Part shown: in pieces, positions 18,195-56,765 of the stretch | Position numbering within the stretch: position 1 is the first letter of the stretch | Layout: each line of letters starts with the position of its first letter | Source: a phage | DNA length: 64,000 nucleotides | Strand: one strand, 5' to 3' | Sequence record: NC_135732.1 | Translations under genes and position numbers: made by a program | The notes under the pieces: generated by a model | Databases searched by the model: none | Seen by the model: only the letters and a program-made list of their open reading frames with translations | Told to the model about the DNA's origin: nothing

Positions 18195-19283
18195 ATGGCT
18201 GTATTTAATGCTGAGAACACCGCTCATAAAACTGGTGACTATCCGCTGTTTCTAGGACAGCAAATGGGTATGTATGACTCTATCAACAAAAAATATCCAC
18301 AACTGTTTGAACTATACAAAAAACAAAAAGAGCAAGATTGGGCAGAGGATGAAGTGGATTTGTCGCAATCTATTTCAGATTTTGTAACATGCTCCAAGTC
18401 AACTTATGACGTGATGGTGCAGACCTTGATGTGGCAATGGGAGGCTGATAGCGTTGCGGCAAGATCGATCATCTGCCTCTTTTCACCATTCATCACTAAT
18501 AGTGAGCTTTTCACTCTATTGATGAAACAGTCAGAGATTGAAGTTCTTCACGCACTAACTTACTCAGAGATTGTTAGACAATGCCTCCCCAATGCCCGTG
18601 AGATTATAGAAGAGATTCAGGAAAACCAAAACGTTCTGAGCAGATCTGGCGTTATTGTCAAATACATGCAAGAGCTTGAGGTTATTGGTGCAAAATACCG
18701 ACTGGATCCTTCTAGTGTTGAAGAAGATATTGTGCGGAAATGCATTCTTAGAGCGCTTTTTGCACTTTTAGCCCTGGAAAGTATTGAGTTTATTGCAAGT
18801 TTTGCATGCACTTTCGCAGTAGCTGAACAGGGTATTTTTGTTCAGGTGGCGCAGCTTGTTCAAAAAATCATGCTTGACGAAATGCTACACTCGAAAGGTG
18901 ATTTTGCCATCATTGATATCCTGCTTAATGATCCCACATGGGAGAAAAGCTTCCTTGAGATAAAGGGGGAGTTAAAAGAGATTCTTGATGAAGTACGAAC
19001 CAAAGAGTACGGTTGGAGTGACTATATTTTCAGCGAAGGAAGGGCGATTATAGGTCTTAACTCACCGTTGCTTAAAGAATGGGTTGACTATAACTGCTCA
19101 CCGATTTATGATTACTACGACATCGACAAAGACTTTGTGCCGCCAACAAAGGACCCGCTACCGTTTATGCAGGTGTGGATGAAACCTTCATTGCAACAGA
19201 CGGCGAACCAAGAAATGTCGAACACTGACTACCGCGTCAACACAACTGTTAACGACGCTGAAGAAGAAATTTGGGAGTTTTAA
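18195..19283 (+). CDS. nrdB: ribonucleotide reductase class I small subunit
   Basis: R2-like layout, 362 aa, immediately downstream of nrdA. Confidence 0.85.
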   Translation: MAVFNAENTAHKTGDYPLFLGQQMGMYDSINKKYPQLFELYKKQKEQDWAEDEVDLSQSISDFVTCSKSTYDVMVQTLMWQWEADSVAARSIICLFSPFITNSELFTLLMKQSEIEVLHALTYSEIVRQCLPNAREIIEEIQENQNVLSRSGVIVKYMQELEVIGAKYRLDPSSVEEDIVRKCILRALFALLALESIEFIASFACTFAVAEQGIFVQVAQLVQKIMLDEMLHSKGDFAIIDILLNDPTWEKSFLEIKGELKEILDEVRTKEYGWSDYIFSEGRAIIGLNSPLLKEWVDYNCSPIYDYYDIDKDFVPPTKDPLPFMQVWMKPSLQQTANQEMSNTDYRVNTTVNDAEEEIWEF

Positions 19284-19286
19284 TAT

Positions 19287-19565
19287 ATGAGCTGCGAAAA
19301 ATCTTTTTTCATCATCATTTACGGTAAGGATAACTGCCCACATTGTGTCAGAGCAAAAGAATTTGCAATCAGCAAAGGTCTGCCTTTTGTATATAAGACA
19401 CTTGGCGAGGGCTACACAAAAGAAGAGCTTATTGAGAAGTGTAGTCCAATCGTCCCCCGAACGTTGCCGCAGATCTTCTTAGAAAGCGATCTTGACAGTA
19501 TCCATATAGGCGGTGCCGACGATTTCATCTCTTTTGTTAAGAATGGTTTTGGAGAGAAAAAGTGA
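19287..19565 (+). CDS. glutaredoxin / NrdH-like redoxin
   Basis: CPHC active site (YGKDNCPHCVRAK). Confidence 0.7.
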   Translation: MSCEKSFFIIIYGKDNCPHCVRAKEFAISKGLPFVYKTLGEGYTKEELIEKCSPIVPRTLPQIFLESDLDSIHIGGADDFISFVKNGFGEKK

Positions 19566-20422
19566 AAGTTGTAAAACGGGACGGTAGAGAAGAGTTCTAT
19601 AACGGAATTAAGGTGATCAAGGCGGCAGAGTCCGCCTTACTTGAGTCTGGACATACTGAAGAAGAAGCTTACCGGATCGCCTGCGCGGTTAATGAAGTTG
19701 TTGCTAACAATCTACCAACCGACCAGTGCACAATCTCTGTAAAAAATATCCATATCCTTGTTGAAGATGCTCTTATGGATATGGGTTTAAAATGTGCAGC
19801 CAGAGAATACATCCAGTATAGACAGACAAGAGATAATAACAGAGAGGCAGGTGGAAAACTGCTTGCAGATATTAGTGGCTTCTTGGATCGAACTTGTGAT
19901 GAATTTACAAAAGAAAACGCAAATAAGCCTACTAATCATGTACACACTCATCGCGACCTGCTTGCAGGTATTCTTAGCAAACACCTTGCATCAACACAGA
20001 TCCTGCCAGACCGTGTCTCCGAAGAGCACAATAAAGGCTTCATCCATGTGCATGATCTTGACTACTTGATCAGTCCGTTAACAAACTGTTGTTTGGTAAA
20101 TTATCCAGATATGTTGGAAAACGGATTCAACATTGGTAACGCCCATGTCAGTAAGCCGAAGTCAATAGGGGTTGCAACAACAATCCTTAGCCAAATCTCT
20201 AGTGCGGTAGCTAGTGCTCAATATGGGGGTCAGACTATGAGCCATATTGATCATTATCTGGCACAGTATGCTGAAGCGACCTATGAGAAGAACCTTAAAT
20301 TTTGCCAGGAACATTGGTTGCCAGATGCTGAGACTGTTGCAATGCAAATGACAGATAAAGACGTATTTGACAGCATGCAGACTTTGCTCTATCAAATCAA
20401 TACATTAACTTCTGTCAACGGT
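19562..20422 (+). CDS. nrdD: anaerobic ribonucleotide reductase NrdD, exon 1
   Basis: ATP-cone start MKVVKRDGREE (GTG start); frame ends at TAA 20423, which is the proposed first intron codon. Confidence 0.7.
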
Positions 20423-21219
20423 TAACAAACTGGCCGTTGTAAAACTCTCCTAACCTCATAAGAGGGGTCGGTAAATCCGGCTAACGGGGAACGCTAAGGC
20501 GAAAGCTATGCCAATCCCGTGACTAGTTCTTACAGGAGTTGGAACGGTTGTAACGACTAACGAAAGGCAGAAATGCTTGACAAACATTTCTGAACCAAGT
20601 AGTGTAGGGGTTAGTTGAAATACTAACTTCGAAATGGAGAGGCTCTATGAAAAAGATCATTCTTAATGGTGAAGAATCAAACTATGTGATTGATGAGGTT
20701 GGAAACGTATACGGAAAACGTGGAATGCTACACCCAATATTGTGGGGAGGTTATGGAAAAGGTAACAAGCATGTTAAACGCCGTTATATGTACTCTTTCG
20801 ACCACAAAGGTAAAAAGATTCGAATCCAAACCTCAAGGATTGTTGCCTTGTATTGTTTGCCGGATGTCCCAGAAGACCCTGAAAACTGGGAAGTGAATCA
20901 TAAAGATGGCAATACATTGAATGATCATCCGTCTAACCTAGAGTGGGTTTTGCCGGAAGATAATAAGAGACATGCTTTCCGAACAGGACTTTGTCCAGGT
21001 AAGTGCTATAGGAAAGTGCAGGCATACAAAGGGAAAACCTTGGTGGGTGAATATCCTTCACTCTATGCCTGTGCAAAAGCCTTAAATTTGAACGTAGGTA
21101 ACGTTCATAGGGCTATTGAAGGAAATGCCGAAGGTAAGCATCTCACAATAAAGGGTTATTATCTTATTGAAGTAGAGTAAGAGATAGTCTGGCCCTGTGG
21201 AAACACAGGGAGGAGACAG
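20423..21219 (+). mobile_element. group I self-splicing intron in nrdD (boundaries approximate)
   Basis: P/Q/R/S-like core elements AACGGGGAAC 20483-20492, CAATCCCGTG 20512-20521, GTAACGACTAACG 20550-20562, GAGATAGTCTGG 21181-21192; P9 hairpin 21193-21210; P1 pairing of exon CAACGGT with GCCGTTG 20433-20439. Confidence 0.65.
20647..21180 (+). CDS. HNH homing endonuclease (intron-encoded)
   Basis: VNHKDGNTLNDHPSNLEWV HNH motif; GGAGAGG RBS; inside the intron. Confidence 0.75.
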   Translation: MKKIILNGEESNYVIDEVGNVYGKRGMLHPILWGGYGKGNKHVKRRYMYSFDHKGKKIRIQTSRIVALYCLPDVPEDPENWEVNHKDGNTLNDHPSNLEWVLPEDNKRHAFRTGLCPGKCYRKVQAYKGKTLVGEYPSLYACAKALNLNVGNVHRAIEGNAEGKHLTIKGYYLIEVE

Positions 21220-22482
21220 CAGACTCCATTCATCACATTAAGTTTAGGACTGGATACCTCGGTCTTTGGTAGAATGATTACCAAAAATTACTTGAAAGTC
21301 CACAAAATGGGTCTTGGTGAAGAACGGATCACACCTGTGTTCCCTAAAGTGCTGTTCTTCCTAGAAGAGGGTGTCAACATGAACCCTGGAGATCCTAACT
21401 ATGATTTGAAACGATTAGCTCTGGAATGCTGTGCAGAACGTATCTATCCTGACTTCGTATCTGTACCACTAAATAGGAAAGTGACAGGCTCGACAGATGG
21501 CAAAGTAACGAGCATGGGTTGCCGGAGTTTTCTTAGCAAATACAATGACTTGGAAACAGGCGAGGAGAAATACCTTGGCAGATTTAACTTAGGCGTTGTT
21601 AGCCTTAACCTGCCAATGATTGCGGCAAAAGCTAAGACGGAAGGTGTTGATTTCTTTGCAGTTCTTGACGAATACTTGGATCTTGCATACGAGGCTCACC
21701 TTGTAAGGGTTAACCGTCTAAAAGGAACAAAGGCAGGGCAGAACCCCATCATGTGGTGTGAAGGCGCTCTTGCTCGCCTGGATCCTGAAGAAAGTATTGA
21801 TAAACTCTTCTATGATGGGTACGCTTCCATCAGCATTGGGTATATTGGTGTGTATGAAACCTGTCAGATTTTGGGCAGAGAAGGTGACAAGGCTTTAGCT
21901 CTTGGAATCCTTCAGCACATGAGAGATGCTTGTGAGCGGTACAAGAAGGAAAGTAGACTAGCATTTAGCTTGTACGGCACTCCTTCTGAGAGTCTATGCT
22001 ATAAAGCTGCAACCTGTCTGGATCGTGAATATCCTGAAGTGTTGAAGCACGAGCATGAATATCTCACCAACAGTTTCCATCAGCCAGTATGGATAAATAG
22101 CTCTCCTTTTGATAAGTGGGAGTATGAGGAAGGTTTTGCTATGATCTCCTCTGGTGGCAACATCGGATACGTAGAAACACCTAACCTGAAAAACAACCTG
22201 GATGCTTTAGAGGCTCTTGTTGACTTCGGGTATAAACACATTATGTATTTTGGTATTAACCAACCTGTGGATAAATGTCTCAAGTGTGGTTTCTCTGGTG
22301 AGTTCAGTGCAACAGCTAAAGGCTTTGTATGCCCAGAGTGTGGAAACCATGAAGAGGGAACGATCAGTGTAATTCGACGTGTGTCTGGATACCTTTCCAG
22401 TCCTAACTCCCGTCCTTACAATAAAGGTAAGCAAGCGGAAGTTATCGAGCGAGTTAAGCACTACGGAAGTTGTGGTTGCTGA
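21220..22482 (+). CDS. nrdD: anaerobic ribonucleotide reductase NrdD, exon 2
   Basis: C-terminal glycyl-radical region RRVSGYLSSP and Cys cluster CLKCG...CPECG; frame open from 21181; 3' splice site after G 21219 (alternatives 21210-21261). Confidence 0.65.
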   Translation, partial: QTPFITLSLGLDTSVFGRMITKNYLKVHKMGLGEERITPVFPKVLFFLEEGVNMNPGDPNYDLKRLALECCAERIYPDFVSVPLNRKVTGSTDGKVTSMGCRSFLSKYNDLETGEEKYLGRFNLGVVSLNLPMIAAKAKTEGVDFFAVLDEYLDLAYEAHLVRVNRLKGTKAGQNPIMWCEGALARLDPEESIDKLFYDGYASISIGYIGVYETCQILGREGDKALALGILQHMRDACERYKKESRLAFSLYGTPSESLCYKAATCLDREYPEVLKHEHEYLTNSFHQPVWINSSPFDKWEYEEGFAMISSGGNIGYVETPNLKNNLDALEALVDFGYKHIMYFGINQPVDKCLKCGFSGEFSATAKGFVCPECGNHEEGTISVIRRVSGYLSSPNSRPYNKGKQAEVIERVKHYGSCGC

Positions 22483-22545
22483 TTCTTGACAAAAGCCACA
22501 AGGATGTGGCATATTATTGACACACAGTGAGCTAGGAGGTGTAGT

Positions 22546-22662
22546 ATGTCATCAGGTATTTATAAAATTTGCAAGTGCGGCTGTAGTTGTAATCTTCGTT
22601 GGTGCAAGGCACTAGACGATTTTATTTGGCATTGCCCTAAATGTGATGCGGAGTATCTATGA
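22546..22662 (+). CDS. small Cys-rich peptide (38 aa)
   Basis: AGGAGG RBS then ATG; CKCGCSC...CPKC; stop overlaps nrdG start; below track length cut-off. Confidence 0.4.
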   Translation: MSSGIYKICKCGCSCNLRWCKALDDFIWHCPKCDAEYL

Positions 22663-23132
22663 ACATTGCTGGATACACAGAAATATCTTACACCGAAGGA
22701 CCAGGTATTAGAACTGCCTTGTGGGTATCTGGGTGCCCACACGCTTGCCCTGGTTGCTTTAATCAGGCATTTTGGTCAAAAGATAAGGGGAGGGAGTTCA
22801 CTGAAGAAGACTTGCAAAAAATCTTGTCAGATTTAGATAACCCGTCTGTGTGCGGTATCTCTCTACTGGGTGGAGAACCCTTAGCATACTATAATGAGCC
22901 AGATATTATTAGCCTGATGGAGAAAATTAAGGAAAAATTTGGTGACAAGAAAACTATTCTTGTATATACTGGGTTCACATTTGACCATATCTCTAGTGAT
23001 GTTCTTAAACTGGCTGATATCATCATTGACGGTAAGTATGTAAAAGATTTACCAACCAAGAAACCGTTCCGAGGCAGTGATAACCAAAGAATGTTTAAAA
23101 AAGTATCAGGCGGTTGGGTTCAGGTAGACTAG
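22659..23132 (+). CDS. nrdG: anaerobic RNR activating enzyme (radical SAM)
   Basis: GPGIRTALWVSGCPHACPGCFN cluster typical of NrdG. Confidence 0.85.
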   Translation: MNIAGYTEISYTEGPGIRTALWVSGCPHACPGCFNQAFWSKDKGREFTEEDLQKILSDLDNPSVCGISLLGGEPLAYYNEPDIISLMEKIKEKFGDKKTILVYTGFTFDHISSDVLKLADIIIDGKYVKDLPTKKPFRGSDNQRMFKKVSGGWVQVD

Positions 23133-53145: not shown

Positions 53146-53499
53146 TTAGTGACAATCACCCCAATTACGACCACACAAGTATTCACCTGTGATCTGGAAC
53201 GGGACTCCCATCATTTTAGAAGCTTGCCAGAAGCAATGCACCACCATTTCACCCACCGGGCTCCAGATAAGTTCAAGCTTCCCGTCATCGTTCAGGATAG
53301 GATCGTACACCGTGTTTCCGTCTCTGTCAACCACTTCGTTTCCGTTCTCATCCTTGCGTGCCTTTTTGTACTTATGACCGTCAAACACATGAAGTTTGGC
53401 TTCCTGCTCTGCCTTAAATGCTTCCAATTCTTCAATTGTGTCGAAGGTGTACACAGTCTTATACTTAGGCGTGTCAGGGACCTGAAGTTGGTACTCATC
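53146..53499 (-). CDS. DNA polymerase family A, exon 2
   Basis: Begins DEYQ (completes motif C YHDE with exon 1); ends ...VPFQITGEYLCGRNWGDCH like Pol I / T7 gp5 C-termini; no in-frame ATG. Confidence 0.7.
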   Translation of the reverse strand, partial: DEYQLQVPDTPKYKTVYTFDTIEELEAFKAEQEAKLHVFDGHKYKKARKDENGNEVVDRDGNTVYDPILNDDGKLELIWSPVGEMVVHCFWQASKMMGVPFQITGEYLCGRNWGDCH

Positions 53500-54341
53500 C
53501 AATAGTTCAGGTAGGTCGTTAAGCTACCCCGCACCATTACGTGCACAGCCATACGGTTTCCTGTATGGATCGGACTATCTCACTACCTTGTTACCAAGGC
53601 ACCTCTCATTTCGACCGCACTTGCTGGCCTACTCTACTCGCTTCTTCACACCAAACTATGTTGGAGCTATGCTTTCGATAGTCTCTGAACGTTACTACCA
53701 GGTGTAGTTTTTAGAGATATGTTTCCACTGTCTTCTTTGCTTTATGGCTCTGACCGTCTCATAAGGATACCCAAGATCCCTAATCTCGCATTGTCGTAGA
53801 CCACTCTGCAACAGTTCGCAAATCTCCGTTACCTCATCCTCGGTCAGCACAGCGTTGGCATTATACTCACCGACTGGCCTTACTCTGAGTTCATTATCGT
53901 AGGCGTGTTTGATATTTCCACCAGGGGTAGTCCATTCCAGGTTCCAGTGTGCATTGTTGTACTTATTTCCATCCTTATGGTTCACCCATGTGAGCTTTTC
54001 AGGATCAGGGTTCGGTACAAAGCATTCAGCAACCAAGTGGTGGACACCTTTTGTGCACTGCTTCCCCTCGATGAGCATGGTTACGCAAAGGTAACCTCTA
54101 CCATTATCAAAACAAAACATTGTTGTATGATCACGTTTCGATAAAGGTATTGTTCCATCATCAAACACGGTATACCCGTGATAATCAGCTGATCTAGCCA
54201 TTTTAACTACACCCCTTTAGTCTTCGCTGCGGATTAGCATATTAAGCTTTTACCATGTTCAGGTGTAAAAGTCAACTTAGCCTTCCCGTCAATTAAAGAG
54301 GTTTTCGACGTGCATCACTGCACGAAGCCACAATGTTATTT
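53500..54341 (-). mobile_element. group I self-splicing intron in DNA polymerase gene
   Basis: Minus-strand P AATTGACGGGAAGG (54294-54281), Q TAATCCGCAGCG (54236-54225), R GTTCAGAGACTATC (53690-53677), S GAGATAGTCC (53581-53572), P9 hairpin with GAAA loop; guide sequence CATTGTGG (54335-54328) pairs exon 1 end CCAT and exon 2 start GATG. Confidence 0.75.
53695..54201 (-). CDS. HNH homing endonuclease (intron-encoded)
   Basis: HHLVAECF...VNHKDGNKYNNAHWNLEW HNH motif; AAGGGGTG RBS; between Q and R elements. Confidence 0.75.
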   Translation of the reverse strand: MARSADYHGYTVFDDGTIPLSKRDHTTMFCFDNGRGYLCVTMLIEGKQCTKGVHHLVAECFVPNPDPEKLTWVNHKDGNKYNNAHWNLEWTTPGGNIKHAYDNELRVRPVGEYNANAVLTEDEVTEICELLQSGLRQCEIRDLGYPYETVRAIKQRRQWKHISKNYTW

Positions 54342-56765
54342 ATGGTAATAAATAATACGACGAACACCTTCATCGTACCACCCGCGCTTCACCATTTGGT
54401 GGTGCATGAGTATCCCAACTAAGTCACACAACGATGCACCACCATTCTGTTGGTATGCATTAAGTAAAGAGTGTTTAGATCGGGTCCAGATAGCATGACC
54501 ATCAAAAGAGTAGATAAACTTCTTACCCGTTGCTTCCCAGAATTTCTCCAGATCTTCTTTACGCCCCTTAAGACCGGGGTTGGCATCCCAAAGTGCATCG
54601 ATTACCCTTTGTCCCAACTCTGGGGAGATATCCAGCATGTCTGCAACTTTGTCTTTTTGTGCCCCATACATAACCCCATACGTGATAGGTTTACCGTCGT
54701 TACGAGACACCTCTCTGCCTGCTACTTTTGTATATGCCTCAGCATTGTTTTGGTGTGCGTCCCCGTTACTTACAACATCATAATACAAGCCGTTGTCGAA
54801 CTCAAAGGCACCCCAAGCCCCGATAAGCTGCTCTAAGTTGGACCCGTCAATACCGATCTCAAAGTATCCCGGAGGAACACCCCACAGACTACGCATCTCT
54901 TTACCCATAACAACTTTAGGAGATGGTTTAGGCATGTTTGCACAAATACTGTGTTTCTGTCTGGAAGTGTTTGTTAATCCAGAGCTTTTAGCAGGAAGCT
55001 TATGGTCAATCTTCAAACGTGGGTGATTAAGAAGACCAGTGTCAACCTTATCCTCCTTGATTGGATCAAGTACCGATCTGCGGTTTCGCAATGATAACCA
55101 CAAGACGATATCTTTAGCCATCTCTCCGTTCAATTTTTCAAGATTCGGGCACAGGTGTCCAAACGTATCTTTCAGTTGCGGAGAAGTAATAAGTGCCCTA
55201 GCTTTTCTACGTATTTTCCCGAATACTTCCTTTTTAATCCTTTCGGAGTTAGGAAAGCTTCGGAACTTGTGCACGGTTGTCTGGAACTTAGCATCAGTTT
55301 TGTTCCAGAAGTTGATAATTAGATCACAATACTCTGACTCTAAAAGCTCGTCCATATATGCATATACTCGTGCATCAACATCTGCATCAGGTAGAGCTTT
55401 CTTCTTGCTGTCTTTAGTTACATCCTTAGTTCTCCACATTGTCGGAAGCCAACCAGCACTGATCAGATACCGCTTAATGTCGTCCTGATTGCTGATTTTC
55501 ATAGGTATCTTGCAGTCCGGCATTCGCTTCTGCTGTAGATCACTTATTGCCTGATCCATTAGCTCTTTAGGTAAAGGTTGTGGTGTGGAGGTGCCCTTAA
55601 TATAGCCTCTCAAGAAATCAGCCATCTTATCTGGGTCTTTGCAGCCCATCTCTTCACACCATTTTATCCCCATCTTACTGACATCTCCTGTGGAGGTAAA
55701 TGCTCGCTTAGGCGGGGCTTTGAACTCTAAAGCACTCATGTCTACAGGATAGCCAAGCTTATCTTTTAACCATTTCCAACCATTATTGGAAATTGTCCCA
55801 TCTTGGTTAAATGGCTTTTCAGGGAACTTGGGCCGCTGAGACATTGACAGCTCTTTTAAAGGTAGTTGTGGTTCAACACGATCAGCGATTTCTTTCATCC
55901 ACGCATCGCAACGGTCACGTAAAGCAATAGCTCCATCTATGTCAAAATACACACCCTGACGGGCCTGCAGCTCCATCAGGAAGTGCTGCAGCATGCCTCG
56001 GCGCAATGCGTTCTTCCAGGTGATTTTCTTGAACCCTTTCGGCTTCTCTTTGGCTGGATCGTACATAAAGTTCTGCATGTCAGATTTGCCGTAGAATACA
56101 CCTTTTGATTCCGCTACCAGCTCTTTCCAGAGCAGCTCCTGGATGATAACGTCCTCGAATACACGATCCACATACTTCCACAACGGAAGATCGCGCCAGT
56201 CATCAATTTGAACTTTCTGGTTACCAAGGGCGTAGCCCCATGCCATAAGGCCGTGAGGACCAACAGGCTGCATTTTCTTAGTAACCGGGTTGAATACAGA
56301 GTCCGGACAACCTTTTGGTAAAGGGCGATCAGGCCACAAGATTCTGCTCATCGCCAACGTATCAAACAGGTTAACCTGGTGGTCGTTGATAGTCCCCATG
56401 CATTTAGGATCACGGAACATATCAAAATGAATACCGGATAATCTTTCCATCAGCATAAAGTCATAACTGTAGCAGTTATGGCAGTTCAAAGCTGTTGGTG
56501 ACCAGTCGGAATTGCCTGTAAGCCAACCTTCCAACTCCGAAAAATCTGCTATGCGAACTTCAAAATCTTTATGAAGAGTTTTCTTTGCCAGAATAAAGTT
56601 CTTAGCCTTCTCTATATCCTCTTCGGAGTAGTGTGTGCGGTCATTTAGAGGAAGGAACAGCATAAAACGGTTCTTATTCAGCTCTTTAAACAGGCCGCAG
56701 TGATAATAAAGATCTGGATCTTCCAGCAAACCGGATGACTCAAAGTCGAACGACCACATGCTCAT
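54342..56765 (-). CDS. DNA polymerase family A, exon 1
   Basis: Motif A FEIGIDGSNLEQLI, motif B RNDGKPITYGVMYG; AAGGAGA RBS; frame reaches stop 2 codons into the intron. Confidence 0.8.

Follow-up and report, generated by a model that had tools for sequence, protein, structure and literature searches.

A probable mobile group I intron with an HNH endonuclease ORF in the nrdD gene of a Vequintavirus phage

The nrdD gene of the analysed phage is divided into two exons by an insert of 797 nt which, with a probability that we put at about 0.92, is a mobile phage intron of group I, subgroup IA2 type, i.e. an intron with P7.1 and P7.2 and a core plan like that of the T4 nrdD intron. All coordinates refer to the window, the whole 64,000-nt stretch of NC_135732.1 that was analysed, which comes from a Vequintavirus (rV5-like) phage and is 99.8% identical to Escherichia phage nomo. 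The original prediction that a group I intron carrying an HNH ORF splits nrdD is supported by several lines of evidence that agree with one another: the occurrence of intron-less, ORF-less and ORF-containing alleles, the RNA structure, a sub-threshold covariance-model match and the similarity of the ORF to I-HmuI. No description of this intron was found in the literature searched (rV5, Vequintavirus, EcoM-FV3, nrdD group I intron); the rV5 paper reports introns in the terminase gene only.

The interrupted gene and the boundaries of the insert

The organization of the locus is as follows:

19562-20422, plus strand: nrdD exon 1, 287 codons, ATP-cone and first part of the NrdD domain (Pfam)
20423-21219, plus strand: predicted group I intron, 797 nt, beginning with UAA (an in-frame stop) and ending with the terminal G21219
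20647-21180, plus strand: intron ORF, 177 aa, putative I-HmuI-like HNH homing endonuclease (Pfam, PDB, PHROG)
21220-22482, plus strand: nrdD exon 2, 420 codons and a stop; NrdD core, glycyl-radical domain and Zn ribbon (Pfam)
21519-21520, plus strand: empty site B, between codons ...SMG and CRSF..., without an intron in the window

The NrdD frame opens with GTG at 19562 and, as had been predicted, is closed by TAA at 20423-20425. Exon 1 is collinear with the intron-less alleles up to 20421/2 and carries the Pfam ATP-cone followed by NRDD profile positions 1-154, ending at residue 287. Exon 2 matches NRDD positions 155-562 (from about base 21217) and Gly_radical, so that the profile runs directly from 154 to 155 across the junction. 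Compared with the contiguous nrdD of 76 related records, the gene of the window is longer by exactly 797 nt, at one point. The phage nimi provides an example of such an intron-less nrdD (sequence GTCAACGGGCAAACTCC).

Removal of 20423-21219 yields a 707-aa NrdD ORF of the same length as in the intron-less alleles. The alignment of this predicted spliced product to T4 NrdD (1H78), proposed earlier as a check, gave E = 3e-167 with no gap between ...SVNG and QTPF... at the junction. The predicted 3' splice site, left uncertain in the original prediction, is fixed between 21219 and 21220, at the candidate which that prediction preferred: a terminal G (omega-G) is present at 21219, and only excision there restores the frame of NrdD and brings ...NG and QTPF... 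together without a gap in the alignment. The boundaries and the 707-aa product are those originally proposed. The DNA sequence alone is equally compatible with an insertion of 20422-21218, and 20423-21219 was chosen solely on the basis of group I boundary rules, in agreement with which the U.G pair closing P1 and the terminal G are both found. A G/T difference at position -1, which resembles a target-site polymorphism, is at least partly a product of this 1-nt ambiguity. An intein is rejected on account of the RNA-level structure and of stop codons that directly follow the junction.

In the genome, NrdA and NrdB are encoded just upstream of nrdD, and nrdG lies directly downstream and is intact (Pfam). 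The DNA polymerase gene on the minus strand is likewise interrupted, at approximately 53.5-54.3 kb, by a group I-like intron that has an HNH ORF, which agrees with the earlier description of the nrdD element as a second intron. The presence of tRNA genes or of other RNA genes was also considered for the window and rejected.

Structure of the predicted ribozyme

The following elements were assigned:

20416-20439, plus strand: P1, exon CAACGGU (20416-22) with internal guide GCCGUUG (20433-39), U20422.G20433 at the cleavage site, 7/7 pairs
20445-20450, plus strand: P3 5' strand CUCUCC, placed after UAAAA and before UAA as in the T4 nrdD intron, 6/6 pairs with 20636-41
20454-20481, plus strand: two small hairpins between the P3 5' strand with its UAA and P4, CCUC-AUAA-GAGG (20454-65) and GUCGG-UAAAU-CCGGC (20467-81)
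20483-92, plus strand: core element AACGGGGAAC
20484-20549, plus strand: P4-P5-P6 domain, the best-aligned portion of the RF00028 match
20484-89/20515-20, plus strand: P4, ACGGGG/UCCCGU
20493-20511, plus strand: P5, with a GAAA loop
20512-21, plus strand: core element CAATCCCGTG
20521-49, plus strand: P6/P6a
20550-62, plus strand: core element GTAACGACTAACG
20555-20559, plus strand: P7 5' strand GACUA, pairing with UAGUC 21185-89, invariant in all relatives
20560-20629, plus strand: expanded P7.1 (20560-20603), then GUAG, then P7.2 (20608-15/20622-29)
20636-20641, plus strand: P3 3' strand GGAGAG, doubling as the Shine-Dalgarno sequence for the HNH ORF
20643-20648, plus strand: P8 5' strand CUCUAU, including the A and U of the start codon, 6/6 pairs with GUAGAG 21172-77
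21172-21219, plus strand: 3' ribozyme segment, consisting of the P8 3' strand (21172-77), J8/7, the P7 3' strand UAGUC (21185-89), P9 and a tail
21181-92, plus strand: core element GAGATAGTCTGG
21193-21210, plus strand: P9, CCCUGUG-GAAA-CACAGGG, followed by a 9-nt tail ending in G21219

The core elements, the P9 hairpin and the P1 pairing with its U.G at the cleavage site had all been anticipated, and each was found where it had been located. P7, the guanosine-binding helix of group I introns, has its 5' strand within the conserved motifs GUAACGACUA and GAGAUAGUCUG. The P7.1 core hairpin, CAGAAAUG/CAUUUCUG at 20568-75/20585-92, was also flagged by a terminator-like scan. Its loop holds TTGACA, the perfect hexamer of an internal promoter that had been suggested at 20577-20605. 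This promoter was not borne out: the -10 element, TAGTGT, agrees at only 3/6 positions, the promoter scan did not call the site, and shuffles contain promoter-like sites at least as often as the region itself. P7.2 is followed by GAAAU and P3', and thus the extra P7.1/P7.2 of IA2-type phage introns are present. P2 is absent. The P1 loop comprises 20423-32, of which CUG (20430-32) can pair with CAG of exon 2 (21220-22) as a P10 of 3 bp; in the ORF-less lineage described below P10 has 2 bp.

The helices were picked by eye and each was verified by a script across four diverged lineages (the window, L003, L010 and L011). P1, P3, P4, P5, P6/P6a, P7, P7.1, P7.2, P8 and P9 are complementary in all four, and most helices show compensatory changes. 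The group I core is complete, the P3/P7 pseudoknot included. In the ORF-less lineage P1 reads AAACGGU/GCCGUUU, a compensatory replacement of C-G by A-U, and a compensatory change in P1 is also found in L011. P3 covaries (CUCUGC/GCAGGG in L003, CUCUGC/GCAGAG in L010, AAUAUCU/GGAUAUU in L011), and further compensatory changes are found in P5, P6 and P6a. In a MAFFT alignment the variable helices of these lineages were put out of register, which is why each helix was checked separately. In its order of helices and its joining motifs the intron agrees with the T4 nrdD intron and with 29 viral relatives; the order P7.1-GUAG-P7.2-GAAA(C/U)-P3' is common to all of them.

A blind complementarity search for P3 in the 29 viral relatives arrived at the homologous helix in about half of them; in the rest it gave chance helices, some of 7-8 bp. 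Complementarity alone is therefore weak evidence, and the assignment of P3 relies on complementarity together with positional homology, its position being homologous in the T4 and site-B introns.

The joiner J3/4 between P3 and P4 normally has 3 nt. The two-hairpin insert at this place is 31 nt long, which is unusual, and both hairpins are retained with compensatory changes in the four lineages; the module may be a replacement peripheral stabiliser. A scan of viral contigs for further two-hairpin members with the 14-mer GGCTAACGGGGAAC returned more than 120 loci, and the downstream core was found only in L010 and L011, therefore the remaining loci are regarded as chance matches. We tentatively suggest, as a possibility at somewhat below even odds, that together with a few relatives, among them L011 and L023, the nrdD intron represents an undescribed IA2 variant, lacking P2, P9.1 and P9.2 and equipped with the covarying J3/4 module and a switch between endonuclease translation and splicing.

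Covariance-model and folding analyses

The covariance-model scan gave significant matches that stay below the curated threshold. At the gathering score of Rfam RF00028 (50 bits) there was no match on the window or on the loci of four relatives, including the compact ORF-less intron. In permissive mode, the ORF-less allele (L003) matched the model over its full length (positions 1-253) with 29.8 bits (E = 7e-6) and the window scored 27.7 bits; the 3' part of the window's intron matched with E = 7e-5 and was aligned with high posterior probability. The miss is a shortfall against a database threshold and does not concern a biochemical defining feature; the structural features of a group I intron are present. 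The ORF-less intron also folds better than its shuffles (z = -3.35).

The intron ORF

I-HmuI and I-HmuII are HNH nicking endonucleases. The 177-aa product of the intron ORF aligns with I-HmuI (PDB 1U3E) over residues 8-160 (phmmer, E = 2.7e-4), its motif NHKDGN..N..NLEW...N corresponding to DHKDGN..N..NLRW...N of I-HmuI. It scores 29.3 bits against Pfam HNH_3 (cut-off 24.8) and matches PHROG 59 with E = 4e-26; PF22083, a C-terminal NUMOD-like DNA-binding region, gives a weak match of 18.4 bits (cut-off 27). The ribosome-binding site predicted for this ORF is present: GGAGAGG at 20636-20642 precedes it, with GGAGAG 5 nt upstream of the AUG at 20647. As the P8 3' strand sits just before the stop codon, the whole ORF constitutes the P8 loop.

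Distribution, spread and alternative explanations

Among the related records, 27 contain the intron with its ORF, 14 an ORF-less intron of 257 nt and 76 no intron. The ORF-less allele has, in place of window positions 20562-21178, a 74-nt stretch that contains a short P8 hairpin, and it retains the whole ribozyme, which indicates that the ribozyme is under selection. The intron diverges by 0.4-1.9% among phages whose exons diverge by 3-8%, a pattern that a homing element should produce. All ORF-containing alleles have the same exon sequence from -18 to +29. The element is thus far less diverged than the exons and sits in diverged nrdD backgrounds, which argues for its recent horizontal spread.

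These data also bear on the most serious alternative, i.e. a decaying intron whose ribozyme splices, whose endonuclease is inactive and which is inherited only vertically. The 14 ORF-less records demonstrate that the endonuclease gene can be lost, and the residue preceding the catalytic His in the I-HmuI alignment is Asn and not Asp. However, all of the sampled copies (7/7) have an intact ORF, which is under purifying selection (pN/pS 0.04-0.11), and the low divergence of the element relative to the exons points in the same direction. We consider decay unlikely and the ORF product a probable endonuclease that presumably acts in homing.

A much less probable alternative is an endonuclease insertion that does not splice, with NrdD made as two polypeptides which assemble after translation, as in NrdA of phage Aeh1 (split by mobE, according to a passage of PMC7344957). 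An HNH insertion of phage CB7 does not splice either (PMC7344957), exon 1 has its own stop codon, an ATG is available at 21274, and the majority of the related GenBank records annotate two separate nrdD CDSs and a stray HNH gene. On the other hand, a start at ATG 21274 would lose QTPFITLSLGLDTSVFGR, 18 conserved residues with aligned counterparts in T4 NrdD, no Shine-Dalgarno sequence precedes this ATG, and in the intron-less alleles it is an internal codon. Moreover, a full covarying group I core is kept even after the loss of the ORF, for which there would be no reason without splicing. As excision restores the reading frame exactly and both exons are under purifying selection, we infer that the intron is spliced. 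The record of the BASEL phage HeinrichReichert, in which nrdD is independently annotated as a two-piece join (method in PMC8594841), agrees with this.

That nrdD is a pseudogene inactivated by a selfish element, with the host enzyme or the phage's own class I NrdAB taking over, can hardly be entertained: NrdA and NrdB are indeed encoded nearby and NrdDG is absent from some genera of the subfamily (PMC7344957), but both exons are intact and, between intron-bearing phages, under purifying selection as strong as that on any gene (pN/pS 0.01-0.05), the frame is restored by intron removal and nrdG is preserved. The strength of this selection indicates that the host nrdD is still functional.

Proposed mechanism

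In the model of a mobile, self-splicing intron, transcription of nrdD would run through the intron, and ribosomes translating exon 1 would halt at the UAA formed by the first three intron bases. The RNA would fold into P1-P9, and exogenous guanosine bound at P7 would attack after U20422, which the U.G pair of P1 keeps in place. In the next step the 3'-OH released on exon 1 would attack after the terminal G21219, joining ...AAC GGU to CAG ACU... and giving the message for the 707-aa NrdD.

The ORF in the P8 loop would be translated into the HNH endonuclease, which presumably nicks or cuts intron-less nrdD in mixed infections; repair of the cut allele would copy the intron together with some flanking exon sequence. 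The P3 3' strand serves as the Shine-Dalgarno sequence of the ORF, and the AUG falls within P8, so that any one RNA molecule should either be translated into the endonuclease or fold its catalytic core, not both. Such a conflict is predicted from the sequence.

Comparison with known introns

The T4 nrdD (sunY) intron, which encodes I-TevII, interrupts the same gene in the same conserved protein block (...NTL-S-NGQTPF...), and also begins with UAAC. The two introns share their 5' plan (P1, UAAAA, P3, UAA, P4, no P2) and their 3' plan (P7, P7.1, GUAG, P7.2, GAAAC, P3', P8, GAUAGUC, P9). However, the T4 intron is inserted 32 nt upstream of the window's (T4 gene nt 538), which rules out their identity. 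Its endonuclease is of the GIY-YIG family and is encoded downstream of P9, whereas the window's HNH ORF lies in the P8 loop. The T4 intron is extended by P9.1/P9.2, and in it the two hairpins that separate P3 from P4 in the window are missing.

A second insertion site in nrdD, site B, is occupied in some members of the same genus, for example phiWec191, phita32 and 241Ecol014PP, by a group I intron with a different I-HmuI-like HNH ORF. It is located 300 nt downstream, between the active-site codons MG and CRSF, and both introns can co-occur in one nrdD gene. The site-B intron, whose 3' end is CUGAACAUAAUG, is nearer to the T4 intron than the window's is. It has P9.1/P9.2 and lacks the two P3-P4 hairpins. 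Its ORF is placed in P6 and not in P8.

The DNA polymerase intron of SPO1/SP82 is also a phage group I intron, residing in another gene and in phages of another host bacterium. Its I-HmuI aligns over almost the whole window ORF with approximately 25-30% protein identity, the aligned part including the HNH motif and a weak match, below the Pfam cut-off, in the NUMOD-like C-terminal region. Within the same subfamily (Vequintavirinae), phage CB7 of the sister genus Certrevirus has elements of the same type, HNH introns in terL and in the DNA polymerase, nrdA and nrdB genes, with splicing shown by RT-PCR, and its nrdD is uninterrupted (PMC7344957). These four introns are a precedent for splicing of the nrdD intron.

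Significance

The nrdD intron leaves the current understanding of group I introns unchanged. Its recognition calls for a correction of annotation in coliphages that are candidates for therapy, which would produce, by splicing, one NrdD of 707 aa and not two fragments accompanied by a stray HNH gene. The genus offers a natural series within the same gene for studies of homing, endonuclease loss and co-conversion: the site is empty in some phages and in others holds the intron with or without its ORF, and a second intron can occur 300 nt away. With its ribosome-binding site in P3 and its start codon in P8, the ORF makes competition between endonuclease translation and ribozyme folding directly testable.

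Intron boundaries and genomic setting of nrdD

A genuine, well-delimited group I intron carrying an I-HmuI-like homing endonuclease, at 20423-21219, is the supported reading of the nrdD region (19562-22482, plus strand). This region is 99.8% identical to that of Escherichia phage nomo and is matched at at least 90% identity by 120 phage records, practically all of which are Vequintavirus (rV5-like). Around nrdD the genes stand in the order nrdA, nrdB, glutaredoxin, nrdD, a small Cys-rich ORF, nrdG:

18195-19283, nrdB
19287-19565, glutaredoxin
22547-22662, plus strand, Cys-rich 38-codon ORF (MSSGIYKICKCGCSCNLRWCKALDDFIWHCPKCDAEYL) between nrdD and nrdG, overlapping the nrdG start by 4 nt
22659-23132, nrdG

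In relatives the Cys-rich ORF is labelled hypothetical or, oddly, 'putative anaerobic ribonucleoside-triphosphate reductase'; just upstream of it are TTGACA-18-CATATT (22486-22515), which resembles a sigma-70 site, and a hairpin at 22495-22510. Nineteen 'Campylobacter phage' GenBank records (MG0656xx, host Campylobacter jejuni) contain an nrdD 95-99% identical to that of E. coli rV5-like phages, and their naming or host assignment looks doubtful.

As the original prediction had it, the NrdD frame opening at GTG 19562 closes at TAA 20423-20425, a 177-codon HNH ORF with its own ribosome-binding site follows (20647-21180, with GGAGAGG ahead), and the remainder of NrdD stands in another frame, in a third ORF reaching 22482. 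The core motifs and P1 pairing that it listed were also found in place. Pfam assigns the ATP-cone and positions 1-154 of the NRDD profile to the first piece, down to its last residue, and positions 155-562 with the glycyl-radical domain to the third, from near base 21217. Among the 120 records the span falls into length classes of 2921 nt (as in the window), 2124 nt (797 fewer), 2381 nt (540 fewer) and several longer ones. In the intron-less phage nimi, nrdD is a single 2124-nt CDS which aligns to window segments 19562-20421 and 21219-22482; the window therefore carries a 797-nt insertion. Comparison of the intron-less ...AACGG-G-CAAACT... with ...AACGG-T[...]G-CAGACT... in the window places it, at the DNA level, at 20422-21218 or 20423-21219. 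The group I mechanism, which requires the 5' exon to end in a U (pairing with a G of P1) and the intron to end in a G, selects the latter.

Excision of 20423-21219 yields a 2124-nt ORF of 707 codons, whose product aligns with T4 NrdD (PDB 1H78; E = 3e-167), ...SVNG|QTPF... standing gapless opposite ...SSNG QTPF.... The 3' splice site, previously left uncertain, is thus settled at the position that the original prediction preferred, on the basis of the natural alleles with their 797-nt insert, the frame, the group I rules and the gapless NrdD alignment. The majority of GenBank records show two NrdD fragments, and the BASEL record HeinrichReichert gives nrdD as a two-piece join. The intron is already half-recognised in database annotation, and its kind is itself classical.

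Ribozyme structure

At the curated Rfam threshold (the 50-bit cut-off of the group I intron model RF00028), no match was obtained in the window or in the loci of four relatives. In permissive mode, the 3' part of the window intron scored 27.7 bits (E = 7e-5 in a 951-nt search, 0.005 in the whole window), and the compact ORF-less allele matched the full-length model (1-253; 29.8 bits, E = 7e-6). These permissive matches to the covariance model are significant, but their scores lie under the family cut-off.

The structure was derived by comparison with 29 viral contigs sharing a P4-P6-P7 core, the T4 nrdD intron and a second Vequintavirus nrdD intron. All compared introns have in common the order P1; P3; P4-P5-P6; GUAACGACUA (P7); P7.1; GUAG; P7.2; GAAA(C/U); P3'; P8; (A/G)AGAUAGUCUG (J8/7 and P7'); P9.

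Helices of the window intron (plus strand)
20416-20422 / 20433-20439, P1
20445-20450 / 20636-20641, P3
20484-20489 / 20515-20520, P4
20493-20511, P5, GAAA loop
20521-20549, P6/P6a
20555-20559 / 21185-21189, P7
20560-20603, P7.1
20608-20629, P7.2
20643-20648 / 21172-21177, P8
21193-21210, P9, GAAA loop, then nine bases up to G21219

A script found complementarity, complete or nearly so, in every helix of four lineages, i.e. the window, the ORF-less intron of HeinrichReichert (L003), its metagenomic variant (L010) and a distant relative in another gene (L011), with compensatory changes in P1, P3, P5, P6, P6a, P7.1, P7.2, P8 and P9. The ORF-less intron folding is more stable than shuffled sequence (z = -3.35). 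The helices were hand-chosen, and an unguided complementarity search also yields chance helices of 7-8 bp; the putative P3 is assigned because its two strands occupy homologous positions in the T4 and second-site introns and are complementary in all lineages.

Comparison with known introns

The T4 nrdD intron, likewise devoid of P2, is located after T4 nrdD nt 538 (…GAGU|AUGAAG…), and the window site is 32 nt farther downstream in the same conserved block. Its endonuclease, I-TevII, is a GIY-YIG protein encoded 3' of P9, whereas that of the window intron is of the HNH type. The two introns are thus related as ribozymes, occupy neighbouring but distinct positions and encode unrelated endonucleases.

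In some Vequintaviruses a further intron (site B) interrupts the active-site codons MG|CRSF; its HNH ORF is located in P6 and its 3' end (CUGAACAUAAUG) resembles that of the T4 nrdD intron. The corresponding window position, 21519/21520, is empty. This intron (in relatives L004 2259-3055, L005, L006 1462-2223 and L007) is about 762 nt long, encodes a different I-HmuI-like HNH protein of 169 aa and occurs in 29 phage records at at least 80% coverage, among them phage VEcB, whose nrdD has an 85%-identical copy. Phages phita32 and 241Ecol014PP have both introns.

RT-PCR has shown splicing of the HNH introns that the sister genus Certrevirus has in terL, DNA polymerase, nrdA and nrdB (PMC7344957). 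The rV5 genome paper reported introns in terL only (PMC3606486), and in the BASEL collection intron boundaries were annotated through comparative genomics (PMC8594841). Our literature search found no paper describing this Vequintavirus nrdD intron.

The DNA polymerase gene of the window is interrupted too, and its intron is probably the 'first' one implied when the nrdD intron was called the second:

53146-56765, minus strand, DNA polymerase gene, intron at about 53510-54338
54336-56765, minus strand, N-terminal ORF, 809 aa, ending ...YYHK*
53695-54201, minus strand, HNH ORF in the intron, 168 aa, motif NHKDGN..NLEW
53146-53502, minus strand, C-terminal exon ORF, 118 aa

This intron is group I-like (RF00028, 33.2 bits, E = 1e-4), and its HNH ORF is located before the P7 element, not in P8.

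Signs of mobility and selection

The 177-aa product of the nrdD intron clears Pfam HNH_3 and matches PHROG 59 'HNH endonuclease' (E = 4e-26); a NUMOD-like C-terminal match is below threshold. Residues 8-160 align with I-HmuI, the nicking homing endonuclease of the SPO1 DNA polymerase intron (PDB 1U3E; E = 2.7e-4), including the HKDGN...N...N motif. Near-identical copies are found only in Vequintavirus nrdD, and all remaining phage homologues are below 60% identity, save one record in the 60-80% band.

Among relatives, the site is occupied by the ORF-containing intron in 27 records and by an ORF-less one of 257 nt in 14 (L003 1162-1418 and 13 others), and is empty in 76. ORF-containing phages differ by 0.4-1.8% in the ribozyme and 0.2-3.6% in the ORF versus 3-8% in the exons, and synonymous divergence is 0.03-0.14 for the ORF and 0.17-0.27 for the exons. 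The junction flanks from -18 to +29 are identical in all ORF-containing alleles, and a separate cluster of synonymous exon-flank changes marks the ORF-less lineage; homing from two different donors, with co-conversion, would be expected to leave such a pattern. At the edge of the otherwise invariant flank, position 20404 (-19) is A in the window and nomo and G in all other sampled alleles, with or without intron, a private synonymous variant. The ORF-less intron, L010 included, is about 86% identical to the window intron in the common ribozyme, has a short P7.1 (ACC-UUUU-GGU) and forms a P8 hairpin where the ORF otherwise stands; together with its own flank changes, this suggests an independent donor lineage rather than a simple ORF deletion. 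The exact ligated-exon sequence occurs at none of the empty sites (best 61/64), so nothing points to a precise loss of the intron.

The ORF is intact in seven of seven copies (pN/pS 0.04-0.11) and the exons of intron-bearing alleles show pN/pS of 0.01-0.05, which indicates that endonuclease and NrdD are both kept functional. An inactive endonuclease is unlikely in view of these selection and divergence data. Also unlikely is a non-splicing insertion with NrdD made as two polypeptides, as in the Aeh1 NrdA/mobE model, since the complete ribozyme is conserved even without the ORF, and a start at the downstream piece's first ATG (21274), which has no ribosome-binding site, would cost 18 conserved residues. 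That nrdD is a dead gene is scarcely credible with both exons under purifying selection.

Unusual layout and ORF translation signals

In the window intron, P1 is followed directly by UAAAA, the P3 5' strand and UAA, without P2, and P9.1/P9.2 are absent. In the T4 and site-B introns P4 comes directly after UAA, whereas here 31 nt intervene, with two small hairpins:

20454-20465, plus strand, first inserted hairpin
20467-20481, plus strand, second inserted hairpin

Both covary. A comparable insert exists in L011 and, in a different subclade, in L023/L035. L011 (8642-8883 of the unrelated 92.7-kb viral contig IMGVR_UViG_3300045988_166972) is an ORF-less intron of 242 nt that interrupts another gene and shows the same arrangement (P3, two hairpins, UA, P4). 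A shallow literature search found no description of such a P3-P4 insert; we present it as a structural observation and claim no novelty for it.

The ORF is exactly the P8 loop: the A and U of its AUG belong to the P8 5' strand, and the 3' strand ends one base before its UAA. As its Shine-Dalgarno sequence, GGAGAG, is the P3 3' strand, folding of the catalytic core would be expected to hide these translation signals, and ribosomes translating the ORF to block core folding in turn. An analogue of such a conflict is known from the T4 td intron, where translation of I-TevI is delayed or restricted. The internal promoter proposed at 20577-20605, which falls within the loop of the expanded P7.1 hairpin, gained no support from a promoter scan. 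Only two features of this intron might repay experimental work: the P3-P4 insert with its two hairpins, and the ORF signals that overlap P3 and P8.
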